Below are positions 5,333-61,346 of a stretch of 64,000 nucleotides of DNA, piece after piece. The notes under the pieces were generated by a model, which was not told the DNA's origin, did not search any database, and was given only the letters and a program-made list of their open reading frames with translations. The DNA is taken from contig CAZVMH010000002.1 of the NCBI GenBank assembly GCA_964628585.1, forward strand, positions 33,751-97,750. The letters run 5' to 3'. The first letter of the stretch is position 1. Each line of letters starts with the position of its first letter. The position numbers and the translations under genes are program-made. Source of the stretch: an uncultured Candidatus Saccharibacteria bacterium. Its GTDB lineage: Bacteria > Patescibacteriota > UBA1384 > XYA2-FULL-43-10 > 1-14-0-10-43-13.

Positions 5333-7027
5333 ATGATTAAGAAATTACTTTTATTGATATGTCTAATCGCCTTGCCCTTTTGCGGACTAGATTTTTCACG
5401 TGCTTTTGCAGCCAATCCAAATCTAATTGCCAATCCCTCTGTAGAAACATTGGACTCAACTAAACTTTCTCCAGTCGATTGGTCTTTTAATAGTTGGGGA
5501 ACGAACACAACAACTCATAGCGTTACTACTACTTCACGACAAGACGGAGTGCGGAGTGTTACTATTAATATGCTAAGACGTACAAGTGGTGATGCTAAGT
5601 GGTATTTTAAACCAGTATCAGTTTCTGGGGGCACAGAATACACCTATACTGACTACTACCATTCTAATATTCCAACTGAATTGGTGGTTCAATTTACTCA
5701 TCAGGGCGGAAGAGTCACTTATCAGAGTTTGGGAACGGTTCAAAAAAATCTGGGCTGGGGCAAGTCAGATTTTTCTTTCACCACACCCCAATATGCAATA
5801 AAGGCAACTGTATTTCACTTAATTAATAAAATCGGATACTTGGGAATTGATAATTGTTATCTTGGCAAGAAAGAACCTACACTCCCAACTCCACCAGTAG
5901 TAATTACAGATAATGTCCCAAATAATTCAGTTGAAGAATCTGTTAACTCAGAACCCCGAGACTGGCTAAAAGGCGGATGGGGCAACAATACTGCAACTCT
6001 TTCATATTTAAATGAAGGACACACAGGAACAAAAAGTTTAAAAACTGAAATCACCAATTATGTCGATGGTGACGCCAAATGGTATTTTACTCCACAAAAA
6101 TTGCTTCCAAATACTACTTACCAATTTTCTGATTTTTATAAATCAGATGTTGCTAGTAGCGTTGTCCTACAAATAGATAAAACAGATGGTACAACTAGCT
6201 ATCAATATTTGAAAAATGCCGAGGTAGCTTCTGTTTGGACACAATACAAAGACACTTTTACAACACCAGCCGACGTTTCTACTTTAACTGTTTTCCATCT
6301 GATCGCTTCAGTAGGTTTTTTAATAACTGACGATTTTTCAATAACTCCTTTTGTTGCTCCTGCTTTCAACCAGCCAATAATTGCCATAACTTTCGACGAT
6401 GGTTGGGAATCGCAATACACAAACGGTCTATCAATTCTTTCAAAATATCAGATATTGGCTACATACTATTTAACTTCAAGTTTTCTTGAGCAACCAGAAT
6501 ATTTAACAAAACTAGAAGTGAACTCTCTCAAAATGTCTGGTGGTGAAATTGCTTCTCATTCTGTGACTCATCCATTTTTAACACAGTTGCCTTTGTCACA
6601 AATGCTCTCTGAATTAACTCAGTCTAAAAATGATTTAGAAAATGATTTTGGTAAAATTAACAGTTTCTCTGTTCCTTACGACGATTATAACGATACAGTA
6701 ATTAATTCAATTAAAACTCTTTATTCATCTGCTCGTATTTCTGACACAGGGTATAATAATCTAAATAATTTTGATGCGTACAGACTTAAAACTCAAAATA
6801 TTTCAAGTACTACAACTGTAACTGAATTAAATAGTTGGATTGCGGAAGCAAAAGTCAGCAAAAGTTTGCTAGTGCTTCTTTATCACCAAGTAGACAATAA
6901 TGGTGGAGCTTATAGTGTAACTCCAGAAAACTTTGATCTTCAAATGTCTGCCATCAAATCAAGCGGGATTAAAACCAGTACTATCAGCCAAGCCATGGCA
7001 GAGCTAACTCCACAATTAATAAAGTAA
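5333..7027 (+). CDS. Secreted polysaccharide deacetylase (NodB) with two CBM-like repeats; paralog of 774..2537
   Basis: Signal peptide. 'W.FNSWGTN...GDAKWYF' modules twice. NodB motifs ITFDDGW and HSVTHPFL. Same architecture as the first deacetylase but without the PP linker. Confidence 0.8.
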   Translation: MIKKLLLLICLIALPFCGLDFSRAFAANPNLIANPSVETLDSTKLSPVDWSFNSWGTNTTTHSVTTTSRQDGVRSVTINMLRRTSGDAKWYFKPVSVSGGTEYTYTDYYHSNIPTELVVQFTHQGGRVTYQSLGTVQKNLGWGKSDFSFTTPQYAIKATVFHLINKIGYLGIDNCYLGKKEPTLPTPPVVITDNVPNNSVEESVNSEPRDWLKGGWGNNTATLSYLNEGHTGTKSLKTEITNYVDGDAKWYFTPQKLLPNTTYQFSDFYKSDVASSVVLQIDKTDGTTSYQYLKNAEVASVWTQYKDTFTTPADVSTLTVFHLIASVGFLITDDFSITPFVAPAFNQPIIAITFDDGWESQYTNGLSILSKYQILATYYLTSSFLEQPEYLTKLEVNSLKMSGGEIASHSVTHPFLTQLPLSQMLSELTQSKNDLENDFGKINSFSVPYDDYNDTVINSIKTLYSSARISDTGYNNLNNFDAYRLKTQNISSTTTVTELNSWIAEAKVSKSLLVLLYHQVDNNGGAYSVTPENFDLQMSAIKSSGIKTSTISQAMAELTPQLIK

Positions 7028-7352: not shown

Positions 7353-7877
7353 ATGTTAAAAAAGTTATTATTTGTGATTGCTTTAGTAGCAGTCGGTGCC
7401 GGTTCGTATGGAATCGCCCGAGCATACTTTAGTAGCTTAACACCCGCTAATGCAACTGAAACATTTACTGCTGGGACAATCAGCATTAGTCTCGAAAGGA
7501 ATGATGCCAATAGCTCAGCATCAATTGGATTAACTAATTGGATGCCAGGAGACGAGGCATGGGTAGCATATGATGTGAGAAATACCAGTACAGTGCCAGT
7601 GACATTAACCGGGTATATTAACGGTACTTGGGGCGCTCCTTTAGGTGATCAAATGGTTCATGTTGTAGCTGCACAGTACTGGGATGGTTCAACTTGGCAG
7701 AACATGGCTGCTCCGAATGGCACATTTTCTTACGCTGGTCCGGTACCTGCAAACGGTGGGATAGTAACGATGAGAATGAAAGCAAGGTTTGAATCAGAAG
7801 CAGGAAATGATTTTCAGGGAAAAACATACACGGCTAGTATCTTTGTTACGGCACATCAAATAGGCGAGCCAATTTAA
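7353..7877 (+). CDS. TasA/camelysin-like secreted protein with SipW-cognate-class signal peptide
   Basis: N-terminus MLKKLLFVIALVAVGAGSYGIARAYFSSLTPANATETFTAGT (AYFS...N..F.AGT signature); strong RBS AAGGAGGGG. Confidence 0.7.
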   Translation: MLKKLLFVIALVAVGAGSYGIARAYFSSLTPANATETFTAGTISISLERNDANSSASIGLTNWMPGDEAWVAYDVRNTSTVPVTLTGYINGTWGAPLGDQMVHVVAAQYWDGSTWQNMAAPNGTFSYAGPVPANGGIVTMRMKARFESEAGNDFQGKTYTASIFVTAHQIGEPI

Positions 7878-8047
7878 ATTGATAGGTTTAAAAATTGACT
7901 TTCTAAATCCCGACAGAACTTTGTCGGGATAAGTGAGAAACAATTAGTAAGGTGAGGTCGATACCTTATATACAAAATTAATTCACTCTGTGAAATAATT
8001 CGCAAAGCGGATTTGAAGAACAATTTCACTAGGGTAAAGGAGTAATT

Positions 8048-8599
8048 ATGTTTAAAATAGTAAAAAGTTTAGTTTTAGTTTTTGCTTTTGTAGTAATGAC
8101 AGCTGGTGCAACGCAGGCTGTATTTACAAGCCAAGCTTCAGTTGTCGGCAATACCTTTGCTACAGGCAGTTTAGAAATTAGAATCAACGGTCAGGCAAGC
8201 ATACCAGGCTTTAATGTTACAAATGCTGCTCCTGGACAATCACAATCAGGGCAATTTGGTGTTAATAACTATGGTCAACCCTGGTTTGCTGGTCCTTCAA
8301 CATTGGCTGCAAAAGATTTAACAATTTCAGCAGTTATGACGGGTGGAGACGCAAGCCTTTTTAACAAGTTAGACGTAGTTGTTGAGGCTAATCGAGGATG
8401 GCCAACTTGGATGCCAGTTTATAGCGGTCCTCTTTCTGGTTTAGCTAACGCTGACTTATTGGATGATCGTTGGTCAGAGCTTATTGCTGGAAGTTCAGAA
8501 GATGTTCGTTATACAGTAACTTTGCCGTTGGATGCTGATGATTCATATCAAGGGCTTTCAACAACTTTCGATTTTGTAGTTGATGCTGCTTCAAGCTAA
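8048..8599 (+). CDS. TasA/camelysin-like secreted protein with SipW-cognate-class signal peptide
   Basis: N-terminus ...MTAGATQAVFTSQASVVGNTFATGSLEIRING; RBS AAGGAG; followed by a GTCCCGATG...CATCGGGAC hairpin. Confidence 0.7.
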   Translation: MFKIVKSLVLVFAFVVMTAGATQAVFTSQASVVGNTFATGSLEIRINGQASIPGFNVTNAAPGQSQSGQFGVNNYGQPWFAGPSTLAAKDLTISAVMTGGDASLFNKLDVVVEANRGWPTWMPVYSGPLSGLANADLLDDRWSELIAGSSEDVRYTVTLPLDADDSYQGLSTTFDFVVDAASS

Positions 8600-8655
8600 G
8601 GGTTTTTAGTCCCGATGTAACATCGGGACAATAAAGCTTTTAATTTAAGGAAAAA

Positions 8656-9261: not shown

Positions 9262-9883
9262 GTTATTAGTTTTTGTTTTTGGTTTGTTATCTGTGACATC
9301 TTTTGCCACAAATGCTTATTATGGTGACCAAGCGACAGTTTCTGGCAATGAATTCTCCACAGGCACTTGGAGCCTCCCAGAAGCAAGGGTAGTAATGAAT
9401 GAAGTTTACTACGATGTTGATGATGTGCATGGTGGCATGGAAGACGAATGGATTGAGCTTTATAATGCTGGAAATGCTTCAATCAACATTAAAGATTGGT
9501 ATTTAGAAGACAATATGGGTTATTCCGATAGAGAAGTTATTAATCAAAATTATATTATTGAACCTGGTCAGTTTGTTCTGCTTTCAGCCAATGCTAGTAT
9601 CTGGAATCAGTATTGGGGAATTGTACCAGAAAATGCAGTAAAAATTGCTTTAGGTGGAACGAGAATATTTTCTGGTCTTGGAAATAATGGGGACAGAGTA
9701 ATTCTTAAAAATGATTCAGGTCTCATTATTGACCAACTAAGTTATGGAACCGATATAACTGTTTTTAACCCTTCAATTCCTGATGTGCAAAAAGGACATT
9801 CAATTTCTAGAAATCCAGCCGGATTCGATACCGATGTGGCGAGTGATTTTATTAACCTAACAATGCCAACGCCAGGAGCATAA
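9248..9883 (+). CDS. Secreted lamin-tail-domain (LTD) protein with SipW-cognate-class signal peptide
   Basis: N-terminus ...TNAYYGDQATVSGNEFSTGTW. LTD signature 'NEVYYDVDD...EWIELYNAGNASINIKDWYL...GQFVLL...GDRVILKNDSGLIIDQLSYG'. Confidence 0.7.
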   Translation: MKLLKLLVFVFGLLSVTSFATNAYYGDQATVSGNEFSTGTWSLPEARVVMNEVYYDVDDVHGGMEDEWIELYNAGNASINIKDWYLEDNMGYSDREVINQNYIIEPGQFVLLSANASIWNQYWGIVPENAVKIALGGTRIFSGLGNNGDRVILKNDSGLIIDQLSYGTDITVFNPSIPDVQKGHSISRNPAGFDTDVASDFINLTMPTPGA

Positions 9884-12616: not shown

Positions 12617-14335
12617 TTAATAGCTTATAGTCATTTTATCATATTCAATTTTTATTTTCTCGTTCTGGTCGATGTCTTTTAATATTGTGTCAAGAACTTT
12701 TTGTTTAGCTGTACCAGTTTGAAGTTGGGGTTTAGTATCTTTTTGAATTGTGGGAAGAACAATTAGTTCCAATTTATCTGCCGTAAACTTACCAGCCACA
12801 ATTAAGCCTTGTTGTGTTTCAGGAGAAAAATATTGATCAAAAAGTAGATTGCCCAAAGAATAAACAATCGGGACATTTTTGTAAATTTCGATATCTTGGA
12901 CAACATGAGGATGTGAACCAATAATTAAATCAGCACCGGCATCTATCCAGCTTTCAGCCAAGTTTTCTTGCGCTTGTGAATGAGTTTGTTCATATTCATT
13001 GCCCCAGTGAGGATAAATAACTACTTTGTTGCCTTTTTTCTTTTCGGTTTTTATTAAATTAAGATCTAAGTCGGTATTTAAAGTGTCAATGGTTATAATG
13101 GAGGCCTTAATCCCATTGCCAGAAAATTCTTTAATTGAGTCAGCATCAACTCTGGCGTCTTGACCAATAGGGGCGATATCATTCTTTTTCAATAAATCAA
13201 CAGTGTAGCTCAAACCTTTCTGTCCGTTGTTAAGAGTGTGATTATTGGCTAGACTAACTGCGTTCAGATGCATCCACTTTAAAACATCAATAGTTTTTGG
13301 AGGGAAATTGAAAACTAAACTGTGATTATAATCGGGTTCTCTCGGCACAGAGCTAATTGGTCCCTCTAAGTTAACTATCTTAAGATCTGTTCCCCAAAAA
13401 GTTCTTTCACCTAGATTTTTCATAACATCCATTAATTTTTCACCCTGGAAAAAGTATTCAATTCCTCGATCAAACATCATATCGCCACCAAAAGTAAGAG
13501 AAAAGGATTGTTCAGATGTTGATTTATTGCCTTTTTCATATAAACCCATCACATGAGTGGTGGACTCGACATCAAAATTATTACTCAAAAAACCTGAATT
13601 GGTATTGGCAAAAAGAGAAAATTTTTCTGTTTTCTCTAATTTAGCCCAAGAAAGGGCTACATTCAGAACTTCAGGCGAATCCGTTTCGGCGAGTAAAATA
13701 TTATTTATATCTAAATTATTAAGTGCAGAAATTGTAAAATCGTCATGAAGTTGAGCTAAATTGGCCGGTTGGTAATGCGAAAAATCGACAGAAGCAATAA
13801 AAAGAAGGTTTTCATTTTCTTTTTGCAAAGTAGAAATCAAATTATCAAGATCAGTTGTTTTTGTATTACTTTTAATTATTAGGGGCACGATATTAGCCTT
13901 AGGAAAAGTATTTTCAATGTCGGCCAAAATATTTTTAATGCCGTGTTCTCGTTCAAAAGCTGAATTTTCATTACAAGCAATTTTTTCTTCCACTAATTTG
14001 GTAATTATCGTTTTCTCGGCAGAAATCTTACTATCAGATAAATCCCAATCCTGATCAGTAGTCTCAATATTGCAGGATCCAGTTTGAAAATGATTTGTTG
14101 AAGCTAATACTATCGTTTTTGGATTCGTCTTGTCTTTAATCGATGCAAAAAATTCTGCTCTTTTGTCTTTTACTAGGTCGTGATGGGGGACTATTATAGT
14201 AGAGATGGTGGGTTTGCCCGCCACGAGCGGAGTTGAGGAGTTTTTAGAAACTGACCGACTGCAAAAATAGGCGATGGCGACTATTAAAGCTAAAAAGAAT
14301 ATTGCGATCCAAATTTTGGGGGAAGATTTTTTCAT
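12617..14335 (-). CDS. Fusion protein: N-terminal MEMO1/AmmeMemoRadiSam-B-like domain plus C-terminal CapA/PGA-capsule-synthesis metallophosphatase domain
   Basis: N-terminal TM. 'IIVPHHDLVKD...STNHF' in the N-terminal half. 'FGGDMMFDRGIEYF...LANNHTLNNGQKG...GSHPHVVQDIE...YSLGNLLFDQ' CapA-family motifs in the C-terminal half. Confidence 0.65.
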   Translation of the reverse strand: MKKSSPKIWIAIFFLALIVAIAYFCSRSVSKNSSTPLVAGKPTISTIIVPHHDLVKDKRAEFFASIKDKTNPKTIVLASTNHFQTGSCNIETTDQDWDLSDSKISAEKTIITKLVEEKIACNENSAFEREHGIKNILADIENTFPKANIVPLIIKSNTKTTDLDNLISTLQKENENLLFIASVDFSHYQPANLAQLHDDFTISALNNLDINNILLAETDSPEVLNVALSWAKLEKTEKFSLFANTNSGFLSNNFDVESTTHVMGLYEKGNKSTSEQSFSLTFGGDMMFDRGIEYFFQGEKLMDVMKNLGERTFWGTDLKIVNLEGPISSVPREPDYNHSLVFNFPPKTIDVLKWMHLNAVSLANNHTLNNGQKGLSYTVDLLKKNDIAPIGQDARVDADSIKEFSGNGIKASIITIDTLNTDLDLNLIKTEKKKGNKVVIYPHWGNEYEQTHSQAQENLAESWIDAGADLIIGSHPHVVQDIEIYKNVPIVYSLGNLLFDQYFSPETQQGLIVAGKFTADKLELIVLPTIQKDTKPQLQTGTAKQKVLDTILKDIDQNEKIKIEYDKMTISY

Positions 14336-25792: not shown

Positions 25793-25880
25793 CAGAAATG
25801 GATAGCTAATGTGTACCAATAGCCAATATACAAATTATTAGTAAATTAGACATTAGTGCAAACTAGACATCCATTTGTGA
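25793..25880. repeat. ~85-nt intergenic element, copy A (about 90% identical to 27014..27100)
   Basis: 'cagaaatggatagc.aatgtgtaccaatagc.aatatac.aat.attagtaaatt.g.cattagtgcaaa.tagacat' shared between the two copies. Confidence 0.8.
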
Positions 25881-25945
25881 TCTTTGTTGCTTAAGCTTAC
25901 ATCTTATAATATAATGTAACAAGAAGGTATTTTTTAGGAGGGTGT

Positions 25946-27013: not shown

Positions 27014-27100
27014 CAGAAATGGATAGCGAATGTGTACCAATAGCGAATATACGAATAATTAGTAAATTGGCCATTAGTGCAAATTAGACATTCATTTATA
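27014..27100. repeat. ~85-nt intergenic element, copy B
   Basis: See copy A; located between pilT and pilC. Confidence 0.8.
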
Positions 27101-27102
27101 AT

Positions 27103-36660: not shown

Positions 36661-37464
36661 ATGACAGAGAAAAAAATCAAAGATACGATAGAGAATAAGA
36701 TAAAAGTTCCGACAATTCCTAAAGAGGATATCGGAATTCCGACCGAAGACCCAAAGGGTTCCCTTCGGGACGTCGGGAAAATCGAAAATGCACCAATAAT
36801 TGAGGTTAAGAACTTGGATGAAGCTGATTCGCCAAAAGAAATTATTGTAGAAGATGTAGCAGCCGAACCAGAAACTTTAGATGATGCCAAAAAAGAAGAG
36901 GAAGCTCCTCGAAGAAAACTTTTAACTCTAAAACAGACTGGTGAGCGTAACTGGTATGTTATTCATACTTATTCAGGATATGAGGAGCAGGTAGCCGATT
37001 CACTAAAACAAAGAATTGAGTCCTTAAATATGGGCGACAAAATTTTTGACGTGATTGTACCGAAAGAAAAACAAATTGAAATTAAAAATGGTAAACGCAG
37101 AACAATAGAGAAGAGGATTTTTCCAGGATATGTATTGGTCGATATGATTGTAACGGATGATTCCTGGTATGTGGTTCGAAACACTCCCAATGTGACCGGT
37201 TTTATTGGTTTTGGTGTCCGTCCTACTCCAATGTCAAAAACAGAAATAGACCGAATTAAAAAAAGAATGGGAGTTGAAGAACCAAAATTCAAGGTAGATT
37301 TTAAAGTTGATGATTTGATCAAGATTACAGACGGAGCGCTTAAGGGTTTTGAAGGTAAAATTGAAGATATTGATCAGGACAGAGGCAAGGTAAAAGTTTT
37401 GGTTAATATGTTTGGGCGCGAGACACCAGTAACACTAGACTTCTTGCAAGTTAAGAAAATATAA
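36661..37464 (+). CDS. nusG: Transcription termination/antitermination factor NusG with an ~90-aa N-terminal extension
   Basis: NGN domain '[15 protein letters not shown]'; KOW '[25 protein letters not shown]'; ATG 36661 with a GGGG RBS. Confidence 0.85.
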
Positions 37465-37472
37465 GGAAAACA

Positions 37473-37898
37473 ATGGCTAAAGAAGTTAAAACAACAATAA
37501 AATTACAATGTCCTGCAGCCAAAGCAAATCCTGCACCTCCAGTCGGGCCAGCATTGGGACAACATGGCGTAAATATTATGGAGTTTTGTCAATCTTTTAA
37601 TGAACAAACAAAAGATAAGGGCGACACAATAATTCCAGTAGAAATCACTATCTACGAAGATAGAACTTTTACATTTGTTCTAAAAACTCCTCCAGCGGCA
37701 GTCTTGATTAAGAAGGCATTAAAATTAGAAAAGGCCTCCGATAATTCAAAGAAAAACAAAGTTGGTAAGTTATCACAGGAACAATTAACCCAAATTGCTG
37801 AGGAAAAAATGCCAGACCTTAATGCTAATGATATTGAAGCCGCTAAAAAAATTATCGCTGGTACTGCCAGAAGCATTGGTGTCGAAATCGAAAAATAA
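37473..37898 (+). CDS. rplK: 50S ribosomal protein L11
   Basis: '[34 protein letters not shown]'. Confidence 0.9.
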
Positions 37899-45443: not shown

Positions 45444-45801
45444 TAGTATTGGGCAAGTAAATTGTATTTTAATAAGACGAGGAGTGGGATCCTTGTTTTT
45501 TTGTTTCCAATCTGGCTGGGAACTGGGGAAACTTAAGATTCTGGGCTTATAGGTTGGTTGGCATTGATGGCCCCTTAAAAAATGTGGGCCTGGCCTAACC
45601 AACTTCCACTATCCTACGCCTTTTTCCTGGCTGGGTTAGAAACTAAAAGTGGCAAAGGGCGAAAAACAGCAATTGAATTTGCAGTTTTTCGTCTCTTGCC
45701 AGAATCATTCTGGCAGAGTTGACATAGTAAACCCTCCTCACCGGAGGTTACATATGTGGCACATCCACAATTTAAGACAAAAAGAAAGTGAGGAACGAGA
45801 A

Positions 45802-46857
45802 GTGAAAAAGCTTCTAATCGTCTCTAGTATCAGTATCGTGATCCTGATGCTGGCGATCGTGCCAGTATCTGCCAACTCGATCGGCTGGGGGGCAAGTTTC
45901 CCCTTGGTCGGCGACCTGATCGGCGGACAGAGGACAACCGAGGTGCACGCCGGCATAACCTTGCCGGTGGCGACCTCGAGTTCGACTGACGGCCCCGACG
46001 AGGCAGTCTGGCAGGGGGGATACATTTCCTTGCCGAACAACACTACGGGCCTGTTCCCCGAGTTTCAATACCTGAAGACAACCCCGCTTATCATGGGGGT
46101 GGATCCGAAGGATCTCCGGGAGAACAGAGTGATCCTTTCTGGAGCGTGTCAGTACGACAAGAGCTCGGAAGAGATCACGATCAACACGGCAGGGATTCTG
46201 CCCGGCCAACACACGCTGGTCTATGAGCAGGATCAAAAAGCGAGCCGGAAGGACACAAGAGTCTTGATCTTCCGGTTTGCGAAGAGAATCGAGAAGACGG
46301 ATACGGCGGCGATGATCTTTACGGTCACGGAGCCGCAACCGTTCCTCGAAGACTACTGCCGTTTGACCGAGGGCAAGGGCTTTGCCGAAGCCTCGATCGA
46401 GTGCAAGCGACTTGCTCGGGTCCTCTACCTGGAGAAGGAAGCGGGTGCGTTTCGGCTGGTAAAGCCGGAGTTGCCCTATAACCTTCTCGTAGACGCATAT
46501 TGGCGGCAGGGGCAGAAGATGCCTCGAGTCGGCGATGTAGCGCCTGCACCGAAGGTGGAAGTACCCGTGCCCGCACCGGCGCCCGTGCCGAAAGTAGAGG
46601 TGCCTGTGCCCGCTCCTATTCCGGCGCCCGTCGCTCCCGTTTCGACCAGAGTAGAGTTCGCGCTCAACGTGATCAGCTCTGCTTCGGGAGCAGTCAGCGT
46701 GCAGATAGGCGATAAGGCCTACCAGGGCACGAGCATCCCGCTCTGTCTTGAGCCTGGCACTTATCAAGCGAAGGTCAAGATAGGAAGTCGTTCAACCGAT
46801 TGGGTCTCATTTAGGGTCAGCCCTAACATGGGCCCGGTCAACATCACGGCCAACTAA
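45802..46857 (+). CDS. Secreted protein with tandem Pro-rich (PAPAPVPKVEVPVPAP) repeats, encoded in the GC-rich island
   Basis: GTG start with a GAGGAACGAGAA RBS; signal peptide KKLLIVSSISIVILMLAIVPVSANS; ~60% GC codon usage unlike the flanks. The upstream in-frame extension to 45649 is less likely. Confidence 0.6.
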   Translation: MKKLLIVSSISIVILMLAIVPVSANSIGWGASFPLVGDLIGGQRTTEVHAGITLPVATSSSTDGPDEAVWQGGYISLPNNTTGLFPEFQYLKTTPLIMGVDPKDLRENRVILSGACQYDKSSEEITINTAGILPGQHTLVYEQDQKASRKDTRVLIFRFAKRIEKTDTAAMIFTVTEPQPFLEDYCRLTEGKGFAEASIECKRLARVLYLEKEAGAFRLVKPELPYNLLVDAYWRQGQKMPRVGDVAPAPKVEVPVPAPAPVPKVEVPVPAPIPAPVAPVSTRVEFALNVISSASGAVSVQIGDKAYQGTSIPLCLEPGTYQAKVKIGSRSTDWVSFRVSPNMGPVNITAN

Positions 46858-46871
46858 AGGAGGGACACACC

Positions 46872-47588
46872 GTGAGGAAGTTCTTGGTTGTAGCAATCCT
46901 GCTCTGCATCGTCTCATCGGTGATGGCAGAGGACTTCTCGGTCACGCTCCAGAAAGCGAAGCCGTGGCCGGGAAAGACCGTTTACGTTTCCGGAATGCAG
47001 TCTCGGACTGCGCCGGCGAACAGCCTGACCGCGGTCCAGTTCTGGACCAAGGGTTGGATCACCGGCACAAATGGTTTGCCGATGACCGTTTACGCTGTCC
47101 CACGGCAGCAGGAAAACGGCATATGGTGGGCGATCTGCCAGGTGTCTGCCTACTGCGGGAACCCGGCAAAAGGTGGCTGGCTCGAGCGCAAAGAGGAGCC
47201 GAAGCCCTTGACCGCAGCTGTCTCGCAGGTGGAAACGCGGGTAGAGACGCGTACAGAGATCAAACTGGTGGAAGTTGAGGTCGAGAGGCCCTGTCCACCA
47301 GCTCTGCTCCCACCGCCGATGGTTGGGGGGCGAGAGGTGTCTCCCGGGTACCCTATAATATATGGGACCCGAAGCGAGAGATGGGTGCCTCTTGCGGTGC
47401 CGTTCGTGTTTTCGTACGAACCGCCCAAGTACGAGCGGCACTGTCCGCCGCCCCCGCCACCGCCGACCTGCCCGCCCGGGGGGTCTCCACCCCCCGAGCA
47501 GAACCCGAGTGGGTGTAATGTTCTCCCCACCGACGGGGGGAGTAACACCCACGTACCTCCTGTTCCGCCGCCTCCTAGCTCACGCTAG
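46872..47588 (+). CDS. Secreted protein with a Pro-rich C-terminus (PPPPPPTCPPGGSPPPEQ...VPPVPPPP), GC-rich island
   Basis: RBS AAGGAGG; signal peptide FLVVAILLCIVSSVMA. Confidence 0.6.
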   Translation: MRKFLVVAILLCIVSSVMAEDFSVTLQKAKPWPGKTVYVSGMQSRTAPANSLTAVQFWTKGWITGTNGLPMTVYAVPRQQENGIWWAICQVSAYCGNPAKGGWLERKEEPKPLTAAVSQVETRVETRTEIKLVEVEVERPCPPALLPPPMVGGREVSPGYPIIYGTRSERWVPLAVPFVFSYEPPKYERHCPPPPPPPTCPPGGSPPPEQNPSGCNVLPTDGGSNTHVPPVPPPPSSR

Positions 47589-47604
47589 GCGGTGGCAAAG
47601 TACC

Positions 47605-47635
47605 GTCCCGCCCTTTCAACCAGAAAGGGCGGGAC
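47605..47635 (+). other. Strong GC hairpin (12-bp stem GTCCCGCCCTTT/AAAGGGCGGGAC) marking the right boundary of the GC-rich island; no U-tract
   Basis: Read directly. Confidence 0.6.
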
Positions 47636-47698
47636 TCCTCTAAGCTCACAAAGAGATTTGTGAACTTAGAAAGAGTAAAAATAAGTAATTAAGTATTA

Positions 47699-49399
47699 AT
47701 GAAAGGTTTCAAAATGGGTTTTAAAGATTATGTAAAATCAAAGTTAAAATACCTTGTAGGTATTGCAACATGTGCGGCGATTGTTTCGCAGCTTGTTTTG
47801 CCTATTGTAGGCACAAAAGCTTCTACACCTCGCTTTAACTTTATGGCAGGTGATTATGAGATGTTAAAGGGTGCCAACGTATCAAACAATGAAACGGTCT
47901 GGAAAGACCCCGTTTCTGGAATAGCTGGTGACGAATTTCGTGCCCAAGTCTATTATCATAACGGAATGATTGATACTGTTGCGCAAAACACAAAAATTAA
48001 AGTGAATATCCCTTCAAAAACTACCAACAAAACTGCAAAAATTTCAGCTACTATTTCAGCTGATAATGCCGGTACGATTACTGACACAGTCGTTGATGGT
48101 AATGTTATCGGTCCAAATGGCCTAACTGCTAATTTTTCCGAAGATGTTGACTTGGAATACATCCCTGGTTCAACTAAATGGTTTCCAAATGCAACTCCAG
48201 TTGGAGGCGCTTCAACATTCTTCCCAAATGGTCAGTCTGGTGATGAAATTGTAAATACAAATGGTGTAAATATCGGTGACATTCAAGGTTGCTGGAATTA
48301 TGCTGGTTTTGTAATCTTTGGTTTCAAAGCAAAAAGAAACATTGTTCACACTCCGGCTTTAGAGTTAACAAAAGAAGTCTTAAATGTTTCAAAGAATGAA
48401 GTTTCTTTTCATGATCACTCTGTAGCTGATAATAAAGATGAGTTAATTTATCAGATTGTAATTCGAAATGGTGGTAACTCTGATCTTTCTAATCTGATAG
48501 TTTCTGATGTATTGCCAGCAGGAGTAAACTTCGTGCCTGGTTCAATGCAAAAGTTTCTTGACGGATCGACTACTCCAATTGCTCTTTCTGATGCCAATGC
48601 AAATGCTGTTTTTGGGCAAGGTTTCAATATCGGAACATTGGGAATGGTCTCAGCTGGTGGTCAAATAGTTCTTAGATTTAAAGCCACAGTTGATACTAAT
48701 GAAGCTATCTGCAAGGAAGCAATAAATAGAGCAATTGCTACTGGCGAAGGTCTAAGATCTGAAGATACAGCCATTGTTACAATTTGTGCACAAGAAAAGA
48801 TTGTAAAAAGTAAGTCTGCTTTTAATCAGACAAAAAATCAAGTTGCAACTGTTGCTAGCGCTGGCGACATAATTGAATACACTTTAACTACTAAAAATTC
48901 TGGAGATTTAGCTGTGAACTTTGTAGTCGAGGATGGTATTGCCGATGTTTTAGAGTATTCCGATATTGTATCTATCTCTGACAATGGTGTTATTGTTGCT
49001 GGAACAACTGGCAATGAAGCACAAATGGTACGATATCCAACTACTCATATCGAAATTGGTCAAACAGTAGTTCGCAAATTTGTCGTAAAAGTAAAAAATC
49101 CACTCCCAACCTATGCTCCAAGTGGATATCACTACGACGACAGAATGTACAATTTTTATGGCAATGAAGTCTTAATAAAGATTGAACGCGAAACTATCAA
49201 GCCAACACCTTCTCCAACTCCAGCTCCAAAGCCTGTAACTCCTTCAACTCCAGCAAAACAACTTCCTGTGACTGGTTCTGCGACTGGTGCTAGTTTCATT
49301 ATAACTTTCATGGCGGGACTAGGTTTAACCTATCTTCGTTACAGAAAACTATACGATCCATCAACTGGATTAATAATTTCTGATCTATTGGCTAAATAA
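47699..49399 (+). CDS. Large cell-surface protein with a C-terminal LPxTG-like sorting signal
   Basis: Signal peptide; beta-rich repeats; 'LPVTGSATGASFIITFMAGLGLTYLRYRKL' (LPxTG plus a hydrophobic stretch plus a basic stretch) followed by 16 extra residues. Confidence 0.7.
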   Translation: MKGFKMGFKDYVKSKLKYLVGIATCAAIVSQLVLPIVGTKASTPRFNFMAGDYEMLKGANVSNNETVWKDPVSGIAGDEFRAQVYYHNGMIDTVAQNTKIKVNIPSKTTNKTAKISATISADNAGTITDTVVDGNVIGPNGLTANFSEDVDLEYIPGSTKWFPNATPVGGASTFFPNGQSGDEIVNTNGVNIGDIQGCWNYAGFVIFGFKAKRNIVHTPALELTKEVLNVSKNEVSFHDHSVADNKDELIYQIVIRNGGNSDLSNLIVSDVLPAGVNFVPGSMQKFLDGSTTPIALSDANANAVFGQGFNIGTLGMVSAGGQIVLRFKATVDTNEAICKEAINRAIATGEGLRSEDTAIVTICAQEKIVKSKSAFNQTKNQVATVASAGDIIEYTLTTKNSGDLAVNFVVEDGIADVLEYSDIVSISDNGVIVAGTTGNEAQMVRYPTTHIEIGQTVVRKFVVKVKNPLPTYAPSGYHYDDRMYNFYGNEVLIKIERETIKPTPSPTPAPKPVTPSTPAKQLPVTGSATGASFIITFMAGLGLTYLRYRKLYDPSTGLIISDLLAK

Positions 49400-53098: not shown

Positions 53099-53887
53099 GT
53101 GTCAAAAAAAGTTGCGGATATGTCTTCAGAAAATGAAGAAATTATCGACGAGAAAAAACTGCTTAGGGAAGCAGAGGAAAGAGAAAAAGAAAGAAAAGCT
53201 GAAGAAAAGATTGCAAAAGAAGAGGCAAAAGAGGAAGAAAAAAAAGAAAAAAAAGAAAAGGTTGCAGAAGAGATTAAAAAACGAAAGCCTCAACATGGTA
53301 AGAAATATCGTGAACTGCTAAAACAAATTGATAAAGATAAAGAATATCCAATTTCTGAGGCAATTGATTTAACTTTAAAAATTTCTCCAGCAAAATTCGA
53401 CGCGACAGTTGAATTCCATGCTAAGCTATCAAAAAAAGAAAAGAATATTCGCGGAATGGTAACTTTGCCGGGAGGTCTTGCCAAAGAAAAAAGAATTCTA
53501 GAAATTACTTCTAAAAATGTCGAAGATTCTATTATAAAGATTAAGGCTGGAAAAGCTGAATTTGATCTAATCATTGCAGACATTAAGTTAATGCCACAAC
53601 TTGCTGTTTTGGCAAAGGTTTTGGGACCAAAGGGATTAATGCCTTCACCAAAAGCAGGAACAGCCGTTGAAGACGTTGCAAAGGCAGTAGCGGAGATGAA
53701 GGGCGGTAAAGTGGAATATAGAGCCGACAAAGACAACAATGTCCATTTAGCTCTTGGCAAAGTTTCCTTTGGATCAGAGAAAATTTATCAAAACTATGAA
53801 GCTATAGTTCATGCATTGCCAAAGAAACTTGAATCTATTCATTTGACAACAACAATGGGTCCAAGCGTCAAGGTTATCAAAAAGTAA
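53099..53887 (+). CDS. rplA: 50S ribosomal protein L1 with an ~70-aa K/E-rich N-terminal extension
   Basis: 'KKYRELLKQIDKDKEYPISEAIDLTLKIS...FDATVEFHAKL...IRGMVTLPGG'; GTG start with an AAAGGAGAA RBS. Confidence 0.85.
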   Translation: MSKKVADMSSENEEIIDEKKLLREAEEREKERKAEEKIAKEEAKEEEKKEKKEKVAEEIKKRKPQHGKKYRELLKQIDKDKEYPISEAIDLTLKISPAKFDATVEFHAKLSKKEKNIRGMVTLPGGLAKEKRILEITSKNVEDSIIKIKAGKAEFDLIIADIKLMPQLAVLAKVLGPKGLMPSPKAGTAVEDVAKAVAEMKGGKVEYRADKDNNVHLALGKVSFGSEKIYQNYEAIVHALPKKLESIHLTTTMGPSVKVIKK

Positions 53888-53907: not shown

Positions 53908-53936
53908 TTGACTAAAGGGGAATATTTTGATATATT
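53908..53936 (+). promoter_or_regulatory. Sigma70-like promoter TTGACT-17-TATATT for rplJ-rplL
   Basis: Near-consensus hexamers with a 17-nt spacer. Confidence 0.6.
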
Positions 53937-54030
53937 TGATACATCCGCAGACAGTAGGTGCCCTAAAAGGCTTAATTACCTGCCGAGGAAAAAACTAGAA
54001 TCATGAATATGTAATCATTATTTTAGATTT

Positions 54031-54058
54031 AATCTGCGGAAAGGCAGATTTTTTTTAA
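54031..54058 (+). terminator. rplJ leader attenuator hairpin (AATCTGC-GGAAAG-GCAGATT plus T8)
   Basis: Intrinsic-terminator-like hairpin about 25 nt upstream of the rplJ start, as in characterised L10 leaders. Confidence 0.6.
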
Positions 54059-54083
54059 TTCATTATTGAGAAATTGGAGCCAA

Positions 54084-54622: not shown

Positions 54623-55255
54623 ATGGCAGACGAAGAAAAAAAAGCGGTGGATACCGTCCTGAGCGAAGTCGAAGGATCTGGAGAAGCAGTAGCCGAAGTT
54701 GAAGACCCAAAGGGTCCCCTTCGGGGCTTCGATGAGGAAGCTAAAGTCGAAGAAGCTCCTAAAGTAGAAGAGGCTCCAAAAGCAGAGGGAAAGAAAGCTC
54801 CGACGCCTCAACCAGAGGTTGAGGGTACGGAGTCCCGACCTGAAAGCGTCGGGAAAGAGAAAAAAGACGTTCCAGCTAAATTTAAAGATTTAGTTGCTGA
54901 AATCGACAAGATGAGCGTTTTGGATCTTTCTGAATTCGTAAAAGTTTTGGAAGATCACTATGGTGTAACGGCTGCTGCTCCTCAAGCAATGGCAATGGGC
55001 GCTGCTCCAGCTGCTGGTGAAGCAGAGGCTGCTGAAGAGAAATCAGCTTTCGATGTAATCTTGGCAAATGCTGGTGCACAAAAAATCGCTGTAATTAAAG
55101 CTGTGCGAGAGATTAAACCAGATCTTGGTTTGAAGGAAGCAAAAGATTTAGTTGATGCTGCTCCAAAAGAACTTCTAAAAGGTGCTAAGAAAGAAGATGC
55201 AGATGCTGCAAAAGCTAAGTTAGAGGCCGCAGGCGCTACAGTAGAAATGAAATAA
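54623..55255 (+). CDS. rplL: 50S ribosomal protein L7/L12 with an ~85-aa acidic N-terminal extension
   Basis: The canonical L12 begins at '[19 protein letters not shown]' and ends '...[12 protein letters not shown]'; the extension contains '[10 protein letters not shown]'. Confidence 0.85.
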
Positions 55256-55525
55256 GTCCCGATGTGGCGTAGCCAATCGGGATCCCGATAATCCACAGGG
55301 TTCATCGGGACTGCTGGTGCTACTGTTGAAATGAAGTAATTACGCAAGCATACCCGTCCGCCATGTAAGCCCACAAGGCATTACGGGCAGGCAGATATCA
55401 GATAACAGAATACAGTTACAAAAAGAGAACCATTCCAGTCAAATAACAGTACGATTTGACGGGACACGGGCTCTTTTTTGTTTATCAGGGTTTAATTTTA
55501 CATAAATTTAGGGTATAATATTGCA

Positions 55526-56632
55526 TTGATGTTTAAACTAATTAAAAAATCAAAATCAGGTGTACGGATCGGAGAACTTGCAACTGCTCATGGAAAAATT
55601 GAGACGCCTTTTTTTATGCCAGTAGGAACACAAGGGAGCGTAAAGGGGATTTCACCTGATGAATTAAATCAAATTGGTGCACAAATCATACTTTGTAATA
55701 CATATCATTTATACCTTCGTCCAGGTGATAAAGTTATCAAAAAACTTGGCGGGTTACATAAATTTATTGGTTGGGGAAAGCCGATCCTTACTGATTCTGG
55801 TGGTTATCAAGTTTTTTCACTTGGAGAAAAAACGGCACAGAAATCCAAAGAATCTTTAGTAAAAATTACCGAAGAGGGTGTTGAATTTAAGTCTCATCTG
55901 GATGGATCTAAACATCTTTTAACTCCAGAGAAGGTGATTCAAATACAATTAGACTTGGGCATAGATATTCTGATGCCTCTTGATGTTTGCCCAAGCGGAA
56001 AAGCTACTAAATATGAAATAAAAAATGCATGTGATCTTACTCTAAGATGGGCAAAACGATCGAAAGAATATTTTGATGCACAAACAAAAAAAATCAAAAA
56101 CGAGAAACGACCATTGCTTCACGGCATTGTTCAGGGTGGTCTTTATGAAGATTTGCGCAAAGAGCATGCCAGTGAAATGATCAAACTTAATTTTGACGGT
56201 TATTCGGTCGGTGGACTGGCGGTTGACCATGAAACACGAGATATGTGGAAAACGGTGAAATTAATGGGGCAAATTTTGCCGGAGGATAAACAGCGATATC
56301 TTATGGGCGTAGGAACCCCGAACGACATTATTAAAGCAACTAAGCTGGGAATGGACATGTTTGATTGTGTCTTGCCAACTCGTTTAGCTAGACATGGTTC
56401 TGTATACATAAAGAACAAATCAAAATATAAATTAATTAATCTATTAAATTCTAAATATCGAGAAGATGAGGAAGCAATCGAAAAAGGTTGTAGCTGTTAT
56501 GCATGTAAAAATAATTATTCGAGAGCGTATATTGGTCATTTAATACGGTCAAGCGAGATATTTGGACTTCGTTTGGCTACTTTACACAACTTGCAAACAT
56601 ATATTAATCTCTTAAAAAAAATTAGAAATTAA
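55526..56632 (+). CDS. tgt: Queuine tRNA-ribosyltransferase (tRNA-guanine transglycosylase)
   Basis: 'FFMPVGTQGSVKG', 'LTDSGGYQVFSL', 'LMGVGTPNDI', C-terminal Zn site CxCxxC...H. Confidence 0.9.
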   Translation: MMFKLIKKSKSGVRIGELATAHGKIETPFFMPVGTQGSVKGISPDELNQIGAQIILCNTYHLYLRPGDKVIKKLGGLHKFIGWGKPILTDSGGYQVFSLGEKTAQKSKESLVKITEEGVEFKSHLDGSKHLLTPEKVIQIQLDLGIDILMPLDVCPSGKATKYEIKNACDLTLRWAKRSKEYFDAQTKKIKNEKRPLLHGIVQGGLYEDLRKEHASEMIKLNFDGYSVGGLAVDHETRDMWKTVKLMGQILPEDKQRYLMGVGTPNDIIKATKLGMDMFDCVLPTRLARHGSVYIKNKSKYKLINLLNSKYREDEEAIEKGCSCYACKNNYSRAYIGHLIRSSEIFGLRLATLHNLQTYINLLKKIRN

Positions 56633-61169: not shown

Positions 61170-61346
61170 ATCATGAGGGTGAGTGAGGAAGCATTCTCAA
61201 GAGGGACAAATTAATTAGTTATTCAGTCACGCCAGATATAATTACAAATTATGCGGTAGTGTGCTGGACAGTCATTTCTGCCTTCGGGCAGAGCGTAGGT
61301 TCCCCCTCCGCCTACGAGACTGTTCGGCACAGTGCCGCATTTTTTA
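61170..61346 (+). ncRNA. Candidate ~175-nt structured transcript (sRNA or riboswitch-type leader) ending in a hairpin plus T6
   Basis: Bounded by the consensus promoter and the CGGCA-CAG-TGCCG plus TTTTTT element. Internal hairpins CTGCC-TTCG-GGCAG and CGTAGG...CCTACG. No convincing ORF or RBS. Confidence 0.3.

Follow-up and report, generated by a model that had tools for sequence, protein, structure and literature searches.

The window, by which we mean the whole 64,000-nucleotide stretch of DNA analysed here, belongs to a CPR/Patescibacteria genome of about 37% G+C and carries nusG and rplL, whose products are closest to proteins of Patescibacteria and Berkelbacteria. nusG and rplL are members of a single ancestral gene cluster, and each encodes a low-complexity, E/K/A/P-rich N-terminal extension, about 95 aa long in NusG and about 85 aa in L7/L12. 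Each extension contains one copy of a 31-nt element built around a 24-nt core:

36745..36775, + strand: 31-mer in nusG, inside ORF 36661-37464
36748-36771: 24-nt twin-hairpin core of the nusG copy, GACCCAAAGGGTTCCCTTCGGGAC, T-A subtype (core positions 13/23), read DPKGSLRD
54701..54731, + strand: 31-mer in rplL, inside ORF 54623-55255
54704-54727: 24-nt core of the rplL copy, GACCCAAAGGGTCCCCTTCGGGGC, consensus C-G subtype, read DPKGPLRG

This pair had been described in the initial annotation as a near-identical, in-frame element of the two N-terminal extensions, shared beyond chance, and that description held. The degenerate 31-mer matched the 64-kb window exactly twice, at these positions and both times on the + strand, and an independent repeat search returned the same nusG/rplL pair at 90% identity, with no extension past 31 nt. 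The copies are identical at 28 of 31 nt, and the ORF translations give EDPKGSLRD in NusG and EDPKGPLRG in L7/L12, i.e., EDPKG(S/P)LR in the proposed frame. In both proteins the Pfam domains begin downstream of the element (NGN at residues 97-199 and KOW at 216-247 in NusG; N-terminal domain at residues 88-133 and C-terminal domain at 143-210 in L7/L12). None of 100 dinucleotide-preserving shuffles of the window contained a match. For rplL we could also reject an over-extended ORF, with the extension being 5' UTR, because there is no alternative in-frame start: the start at 54623, with AAGGA upstream, is the only one ahead of the L12 N-terminal domain helix. Relatives keep the MADEEKK start and the ...VPAKFKDL junction, with a variable insert between them.

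All three nucleotide differences between the copies are nonsynonymous, all synonymous positions are identical, and two of the differences (T16C and A26G) form a compensatory pair. This suggests that what is shared is the nucleotide sequence rather than the peptide.

The surroundings of the two genes have some features of their own. The usual nusG-rplK-rplA-rplJ-rplL cluster is split, since rplK (37473-37898) and rplA (53099-53887) lie about 15 kb apart, with a Dus gene, a gene for a DUF11 protein and pilin-like genes between them. A block of 55% G+C at 45600-47700, with ORFs open on both strands and no Pfam match, may be foreign DNA; a very strong hairpin, GTCCCGCCCTTTC-aacca-GAAAGGGCGGGAC, is found at 47605-47635. 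Between rplL and rpoB lies tgt (queuine tRNA-ribosyltransferase, 55526-56632), and the same rplL-tgt order in L100 and L101 indicates that the arrangement is conserved in this clade. Elsewhere in the window, the two copies of an 89-nt direct repeat (25793-25881 and 27014-27102, 89% identical) each immediately precede the start of a gene and may stem from duplication of a leader or promoter.

The 24-nt core has the form GACCC-AAA-GGGTC / CCCC-TTCG-GGGG and had been proposed to fold, as RNA, into twin mini-hairpins. Taken alone, the consensus 24-mer does have the twin hairpin as its minimum-energy fold (-10.2 kcal/mol). In their mRNA contexts, however, both window copies are predicted to pair with their flanks and to favour one long hairpin instead (-17.9 and -16.6 kcal/mol), and the 71-nt contexts are not unusually stable with respect to shuffles (z = -0.31 and -2.13). 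The first hairpin, originally given as CCC-AAA-GGG, was drawn too short, being in fact GACCC-AAA-GGGTC, with 4-5 bp. The flanks of the rplL core are complementary as well, pairing as GTTGAA / TTCGAT (or CGAAG / CTTCG).

In the set of 79 distinct core copies described below, core positions 13 and 23 are Watson-Crick partners in 76 (64 C-G, 7 T-A and 5 A-T; permutation p < 1e-4), a covariation that supports a 4-bp second stem. Given that the nusG copy is of the T-A and the rplL copy of the C-G subtype, neither is a direct copy of the other. Positions 1 and 24 are G-C or G-T in 72/79 copies. A closing stem adjoins the core in both window copies and in several subfamilies and is absent from some copies. 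Flank stems of at least 6 bp occur in 29% of cognate vs 12.5% of non-cognate flank pairs, with a mean longest stem of 4.5 vs 3.9; this test weakened, and led us to reject, a universal three-way junction with a covarying outer stem, and it implies that the outer stem belongs to some subfamilies only. The flanking DNA of the fetched loci also holds diverged copies of the core, some with altered loops and one in which hairpin 1 has covaried throughout, so that the core looks more invariant than it is, in part because the scans demanded an exact pattern.

Two ordinary identities for the hairpin were discarded. Rfam, at the gathering threshold, found only the L10 leader and one tRNA in the window, with nothing at the hairpin copies, and only tRNAs in 18 copy-bearing loci; with no Rfam match at any copy, a known RNA family was rejected. 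An intrinsic terminator was rejected for the window copies, which are followed by ACGTCGGGAAAATC and CTTCGATGAGGAAG, with no T-run; elsewhere a T-run follows the twin core in only a few copies (L009, L032).

Outside the window, collection scans demanding the exact core (pattern GACCCAAAGGGNNCCCTTCGGG, 20 bases) revealed a wide dispersal. In species-representative genomes (one per species, 596 Gb) there were 33 core loci, against about 1 expected, and in a metagenome collection there were 63; after removal of duplicates, 79 distinct copies remained. A viral contig collection gave 0 core matches, and a phage origin was rejected on that ground. The hosts are mostly Berkelbacteria, Saccharibacteria and Peregrinibacteria/Peribacteria: the core was found in three Berkelbacteria MAGs (with 4, 3 and 1 copies), five Saccharibacteria MAGs, four Peregrinibacteria/Peribacteria MAGs and one unclassified MAG with 7 copies. 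Non-CPR MAGs contain a few variants whose central dinucleotide differs, and these may be unrelated palindromes. Each MAG carries about 2-7 twin-core copies, a low number for a selfish repeat, and no transposase or other mobilising gene was found beside any copy in the fetched 8-15-kb loci.

With genes called in these loci by simple long-ORF criteria, 11 of 72 distinct main-type copies (about 15%) lie inside ORFs, 5 in sense and 6 in antisense orientation, and about 85% are intergenic. The intergenic copies divide evenly with respect to the nearest upstream gene (22 co-oriented, 22 opposed), and some twin copies lie directly after tRNA genes or before T-runs.

The copies inside genes occur in a disparate set of proteins. 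Within one Saccharibacteria MAG, the core is found both in the ATP synthase gamma subunit and in LeuRS, hosts that were confirmed by Pfam; in LeuRS it falls between the catalytic domain and the editing domain. At the insertion site GatB has about 33 residues, against 5 in the Aquifex structure 3h0l_B, and the insertion corresponds to one whole repeat unit; TsaD has about 53 residues, against about 5 in 8iey_A. Ribosomal protein S15, a Mg-chelatase/YifB-like ATPase, a metallophosphoesterase and an Fe-S protein are further Pfam-confirmed hosts, and a pilin-like protein, whose Pfam match is weak, has the core at its N-terminus. The translation of the core varies with the host, covering at least five frames (the products include PRRGPFGS and, in GatB and TsaD, PEGDPLGR), and the 24-mer is free of stops in all six. 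The conservation of frame suggests that the extensions are translated.

These results bear on the interpretation first attached to the element, namely a shared inserted or selected RNA/peptide motif that might act as a regulatory RNA or protein-binding tag linking NusG to L7/L12. The inserted element and its nucleotide-level conservation were borne out; the RNA or peptide link was not. Neither the 120 closest NusG homologues nor the 120 closest L7/L12 homologues carry the motif (0/120 and 0/120, counting DPKG(S/P)LR and near variants), and it is instead present at unrelated sites: intergenic, downstream of tRNAs, and inside atpG, leuS, gatB, tsaD and other genes, in both orientations. The proposed link thereby fails the refutation test that was set out with it.

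A regulatory RNA or EDPKGxLR tag coupling specifically NusG and L7/L12 would fit the fact that both copies are in frame, share one reading frame and belong to proteins acting where transcription meets translation. Disordered tails are a known setting for short linear motifs, and disorder is predicted here: from an alignment of 35 sequences, AlphaFold2 assigned NusG residues 1-93 pLDDT values of 36-50 and no secondary structure, and it folded the NGN and KOW domains confidently. Yet, besides the absence from homologues, the two copies differ in three amino acids and at no synonymous site, and the same DNA is mostly intergenic, with five or more reading frames used in unrelated proteins. Since the core is read, stop-free, in different frames in unrelated hosts, a peptide tag is excluded, and the use of both orientations and many frames makes an orientation-specific RNA signal unlikely. 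Consequently, we find a coupling of this kind hardly credible. The N-terminal extensions of the 120 closest NusG homologues range from 18 to 92 aa and are not alignable, and the tails of both NusG and L7/L12 are hypervariable and probably disordered. The simplest account of the sharing between nusG and rplL is that it does not reflect a functional coupling of the two proteins, their tails being two permissive targets that have collected the same repeat family.

The twin core is often embedded in something larger. In other genomes it lies near the 3' end of units of about 75-210 nt that start with (T)GTCATYYC and end with GRRATGACA, contain internal hairpins, are non-coding and are found in a mostly intergenic setting. 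About 690 kb of fetched loci contained 34 GTCAT...ATGAC units (inverted ends complementary at 11/13 positions or more), and most of them lack the twin core, which makes the twin-bearing units one part of a larger superfamily. Such units are dense in other CPR contigs (e.g., L078 at 5669-5766, 9341-9430 and 12885-12964, plus 31 other sites), and their subfamilies include GTCATTCCCGC, GTCATTGCGAG, GTCATTCTGG and GTCATCTCGAG. No consistent target-site duplication was seen at the aligned unit boundaries of the E14, ELA105 and TCGAGATGACA subfamilies, and long-range GTCAT inverted pairs in the 8-15-kb loci enclose only ordinary genes, with no transposase-like ORF seen.

The Berkelbacteria ELA105 units (L001, L018, L021, L031) share a constant scaffold of two ATTCCNGC hairpins, GCTTAC and the twin core. 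All four differ completely over about 30 nt between CCACAAATAG and GCTTAC, a segment that may be either a spacer under no constraint or a functional part that varies.

The window itself contains no intact GTCAT...ATGAC unit and 0 occurrences of GGRATGACR, which identifies its copies as fragments or stand-alone modules. Around and beside them we recognized the following companion features:

36737..36779, + strand: H2-type outer hairpin in nusG, enclosing the core, which fills its loop; arms 5' TTCCGAC (36737-36743) and 3' GTCGGGAA (36772-36779)
54656..54676, + strand: 21-nt module in the rplL extension, GTCCTGAGCGAAGTCGAAGGA
54797..54856, + strand: module B in the rplL extension, hairpins H1 + H2, z = -4.03; H1 is CCTCAACC-aga-GGTTGAGG (54806-54824) and H2 is TCCCGAC-ctgaaagc-GTCGGGA (54833-54854)
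7908..7929, + strand: intergenic H2-type hairpin TCCCGAC-agaacttt-GTCGGGA, 31 nt past the stop of ORF 7353-7877
8610..8628, + strand: intergenic H2-type hairpin TCCCGATG-taa-CATCGGGA, 11 nt past the stop of ORF 8048-8599
55257..55282, + strand: intergenic H2-type hairpin TCCCGAT...ATCGGGA, 2 nt past the rplL stop

The H2 hairpin pattern has 4 matches in the window vs 0 expected. At the orthologous nusG site, the closest relative (L034) has a plain hairpin, TCCCGAC-CTGAAAGC-GTCGGGA, followed by the same AAAATC, in place of the core-filled version of the window. A plain version, GGAATCCCGACCGAAAGCGTCGGGAAA, which encodes GIPTESVGK, is found in the rplL gene of L098.

The rplL 21-mer matches, at 21/21 positions, a hairpin located inside intergenic GTCAT...ATGAC units of the E14 MAG (L004 and L010), a score reached by 0/300 shuffles; 18-nt matches occur in L079 and L043. 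In L004 the 21-mer precedes the twin core, which is also the arrangement in rplL. Apart from this significant match in the rplL left flank, decayed unit ends around the window copies were rejected, the nusG flanks and both right flanks having no significant match to unit ends (p = 0.2-0.5).

Module B recurs in three other genes. It is 55/60 identical in the nusG gene of the closest relative (L034), 58/60 in the rplL gene of a distant relative (L100), where the gene cores are just 68.8% identical, and 47/60 in the rpsO gene of a Saccharibacteria genome (L013). The modules are thus better conserved than the genes that host them. In L013 (7097-7525) the N-terminal extension of S15 contains module B in frame, and the 5' UTR of the gene holds a twin core 21 nt ahead of the start codon.

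Other structures of this general kind were noted. A recurrent peptide, S(T)SAEATADKK, is present, sometimes twice, in many L7/L12 extensions, those of the homologues P0121, P0123, P0135, P0139, P0151, P0163, P0183, P0198 and others; in L102 its coding sequence forms another small hairpin, TCCGC...GCGGA, a hint at a further family of modules. At 61270-61335 of the window there is an intergenic multi-hairpin element with GTCAT, TCTGCC-TTCG-GGCAGA and CGTAGG...CCTACG, closed by GACAGTC/GACTGT. Its layout resembles that of the twin-hairpin units but its sequence differs, and Rfam gave no match at E <= 1 on window positions 60.7-62.45 kb.

Could the 31-mer be due to a private gene conversion or duplication between the nusG and rplL tails of a single genome, with no wider family behind it? 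The genes derive from one ancestral cluster and have tails of similar low-complexity composition, and modules have been exchanged between nusG and rplL across genomes. Against this, other genomes have the core in about 79 distinct settings, the window copies are of different covarying subtypes (T-A and C-G), each of which is also found elsewhere, and their flanks are alike nowhere beyond the 31 nt. We therefore consider a purely private event very unlikely, although ectopic copying between existing copies may be the route by which modules spread.

The main alternative is that the twin hairpin is a functional cis-acting nucleic-acid signal (an RNA-stability or terminator hairpin, or a site bound or processed by a conserved CPR protein) kept similar across phyla by selection, the in-gene copies being by-products or modulators of host expression. 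The near-identity of the core in distant CPR lineages and the covariation of its second stem speak for it, and the G-C or G-T combination that prevails at positions 1/24 would suit RNA pairing. The position of several copies is also suggestive: the three simple intergenic H2-type hairpins of the window lie 2-31 nt after stop codons, several twin copies come directly after tRNA genes or before T-runs, and the L013 twin closely precedes the rpsO start. However, there is no orientation bias with respect to neighbouring or host genes, no Rfam family match and no T-run after either window copy. Folding in context is not significantly stable and other structures are preferred, the motif is absent from orthologous nusG and rplL, and diverged copies become common once exact-match ascertainment is removed. 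On balance, a selected cis-acting signal seems to us unlikely.

The explanation that we favour, and regard as likely, is that the 31-mer represents one instance of a short, GC-rich palindromic module, the 24-nt twin hairpin, which is repeated at dispersed sites in CPR/Patescibacteria. In other genomes the module is usually part of the 75-210-nt non-coding units with inverted GTCAT...ATGAC ends, which are reminiscent of MITEs or REP elements. When the module, or its unit, lands in a permissive region of a gene and the frame is kept, the gene would survive and the module would be translated. Being free of stops, and with the surviving events keeping frame, the modules would be translated passengers, and the encoded peptide presumably has no function of its own. 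Permissive sites would be the N-terminal tails of NusG and L7/L12, which are acidic, hypervariable and probably disordered, and, in other proteins, inter-domain or surface loops. The nusG tail is a mosaic in which an H2 hairpin holds the twin core in its loop, and the rplL tail a mosaic of at least three modules, namely the 21-mer, the twin core and then H1+H2. Spread could have occurred by transposition or by copy-paste processes such as template switching or gene conversion.

Direct support for the dispersed-module explanation comes from the dispersal of the core, its intergenic bias, its occurrence in both orientations and multiple frames, its absence from orthologues and the filled vs plain nusG hairpin. 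The higher conservation of modules relative to host genes, the hairpin covariation and the low-confidence tail point the same way.

A bolder extension of this explanation is that the twin hairpin and its companion modules are the recognition structure of a CPR-wide system, either a hairpin-loop-targeting mobilisation machinery or a conserved nucleic-acid-binding factor, that copies modules across CPR phyla. We hold this to be rather doubtful. If it were true, such a system would be a main generator of lineage-specific extensions and insertions in CPR proteins, and it would also copy modules into ribosomal and transcription genes, at the 5' ends of their coding sequences.

Lineage-specific extensions and insertions are a known but unexplained feature of CPR proteins, ribosomal ones included; both bL12 and uL1 are noted as enlarged in CPR, with no cause given (PMC9297842). 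Small stop-free palindromic modules, copied between intergenic DNA and genes, would be a source for some of the CPR protein extensions. The N-terminal uL1 extension of the window (53099-53380, about 93 aa, K/E-rich) showed no match to hairpin modules in the fetched loci. Modules of this type create spurious nucleotide identity between unrelated genes and can mislead the alignment, phylogeny and binning of CPR genomes, and comparative evidence is needed before they are read as regulatory or interaction motifs.

Among known systems, the L10 leader (RF00557), the cis-regulatory RNA known for the rplJL operon, is present at 53927-54065 upstream of rplJ (73.7 bits in Rfam). It is a structured RNA tied to the same operon, but upstream of rplJ is its normal place, and it is unrelated to the element inside rplL.

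The units found in other CPR genomes resemble MITEs in being short, non-coding, multi-copy and structure-rich, with terminal inverted repeats GTCATYYC...GRRATGAC. Unlike MITEs, they show no target-site duplication in the three subfamilies aligned, and the copies in the window have no inverted ends at all. Neither a parent or autonomous insertion sequence sharing those ends nor a neighbouring transposase turned up in the fetched 8-15-kb loci.

With REP/BIME elements, REPINs (mobilised by RAYT) and PATEs (derived from IS200/IS605), the modules share the form of short imperfect palindromes that are mostly extragenic and often just after stops, and also modular hairpin combinations, the lack of target-site duplications and a conservation of structure over sequence in the stems. 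They differ from REPs in that the 5' GTAG signature is absent from the flanks of the 79 CPR copies, the copy number is far below the hundreds typical of REPs, and no RAYT or Y1 transposase was identified in the fetched 8-15-kb loci. To our knowledge, REPs are essentially never in frame inside genes.

In the literature searched we found no description of the core sequence or of palindromic/MITE-like elements in CPR proteins. An established precedent for in-frame palindromic insertions in housekeeping genes is offered by the Rickettsia palindromic elements (RPEs; Ogata et al. 2000, summarised in PMC10969869). These are Rickettsia-specific and about 100-150 bp long, with each family encoding a conserved peptide in one frame. 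Like RPEs, the CPR modules are palindromic repeats forming a stable hairpin (the minimum-energy fold of the core, with positions 13 and 23 paired in 76/79 copies) and are dispersed in the small genomes of host-dependent bacteria. They occur both between genes and in frame in unrelated housekeeping genes, where they would be translated at permissive positions. RPEs have no associated transposase, and none was found beside the CPR copies in the fetched loci. In contrast to RPEs, the CPR core is only 24 nt long, is used in either orientation and in at least five frames, and is one module of heterogeneous 75-210-nt units, and the modules span several phylum-level lineages. Taxon and size thus set them apart: with a 24-nt core, units of 75-210 nt and CPR hosts, they are RPE-like in behaviour and stand outside the RPE family. 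We propose that they represent a family of dispersed palindromic modules analogous to the RPEs.
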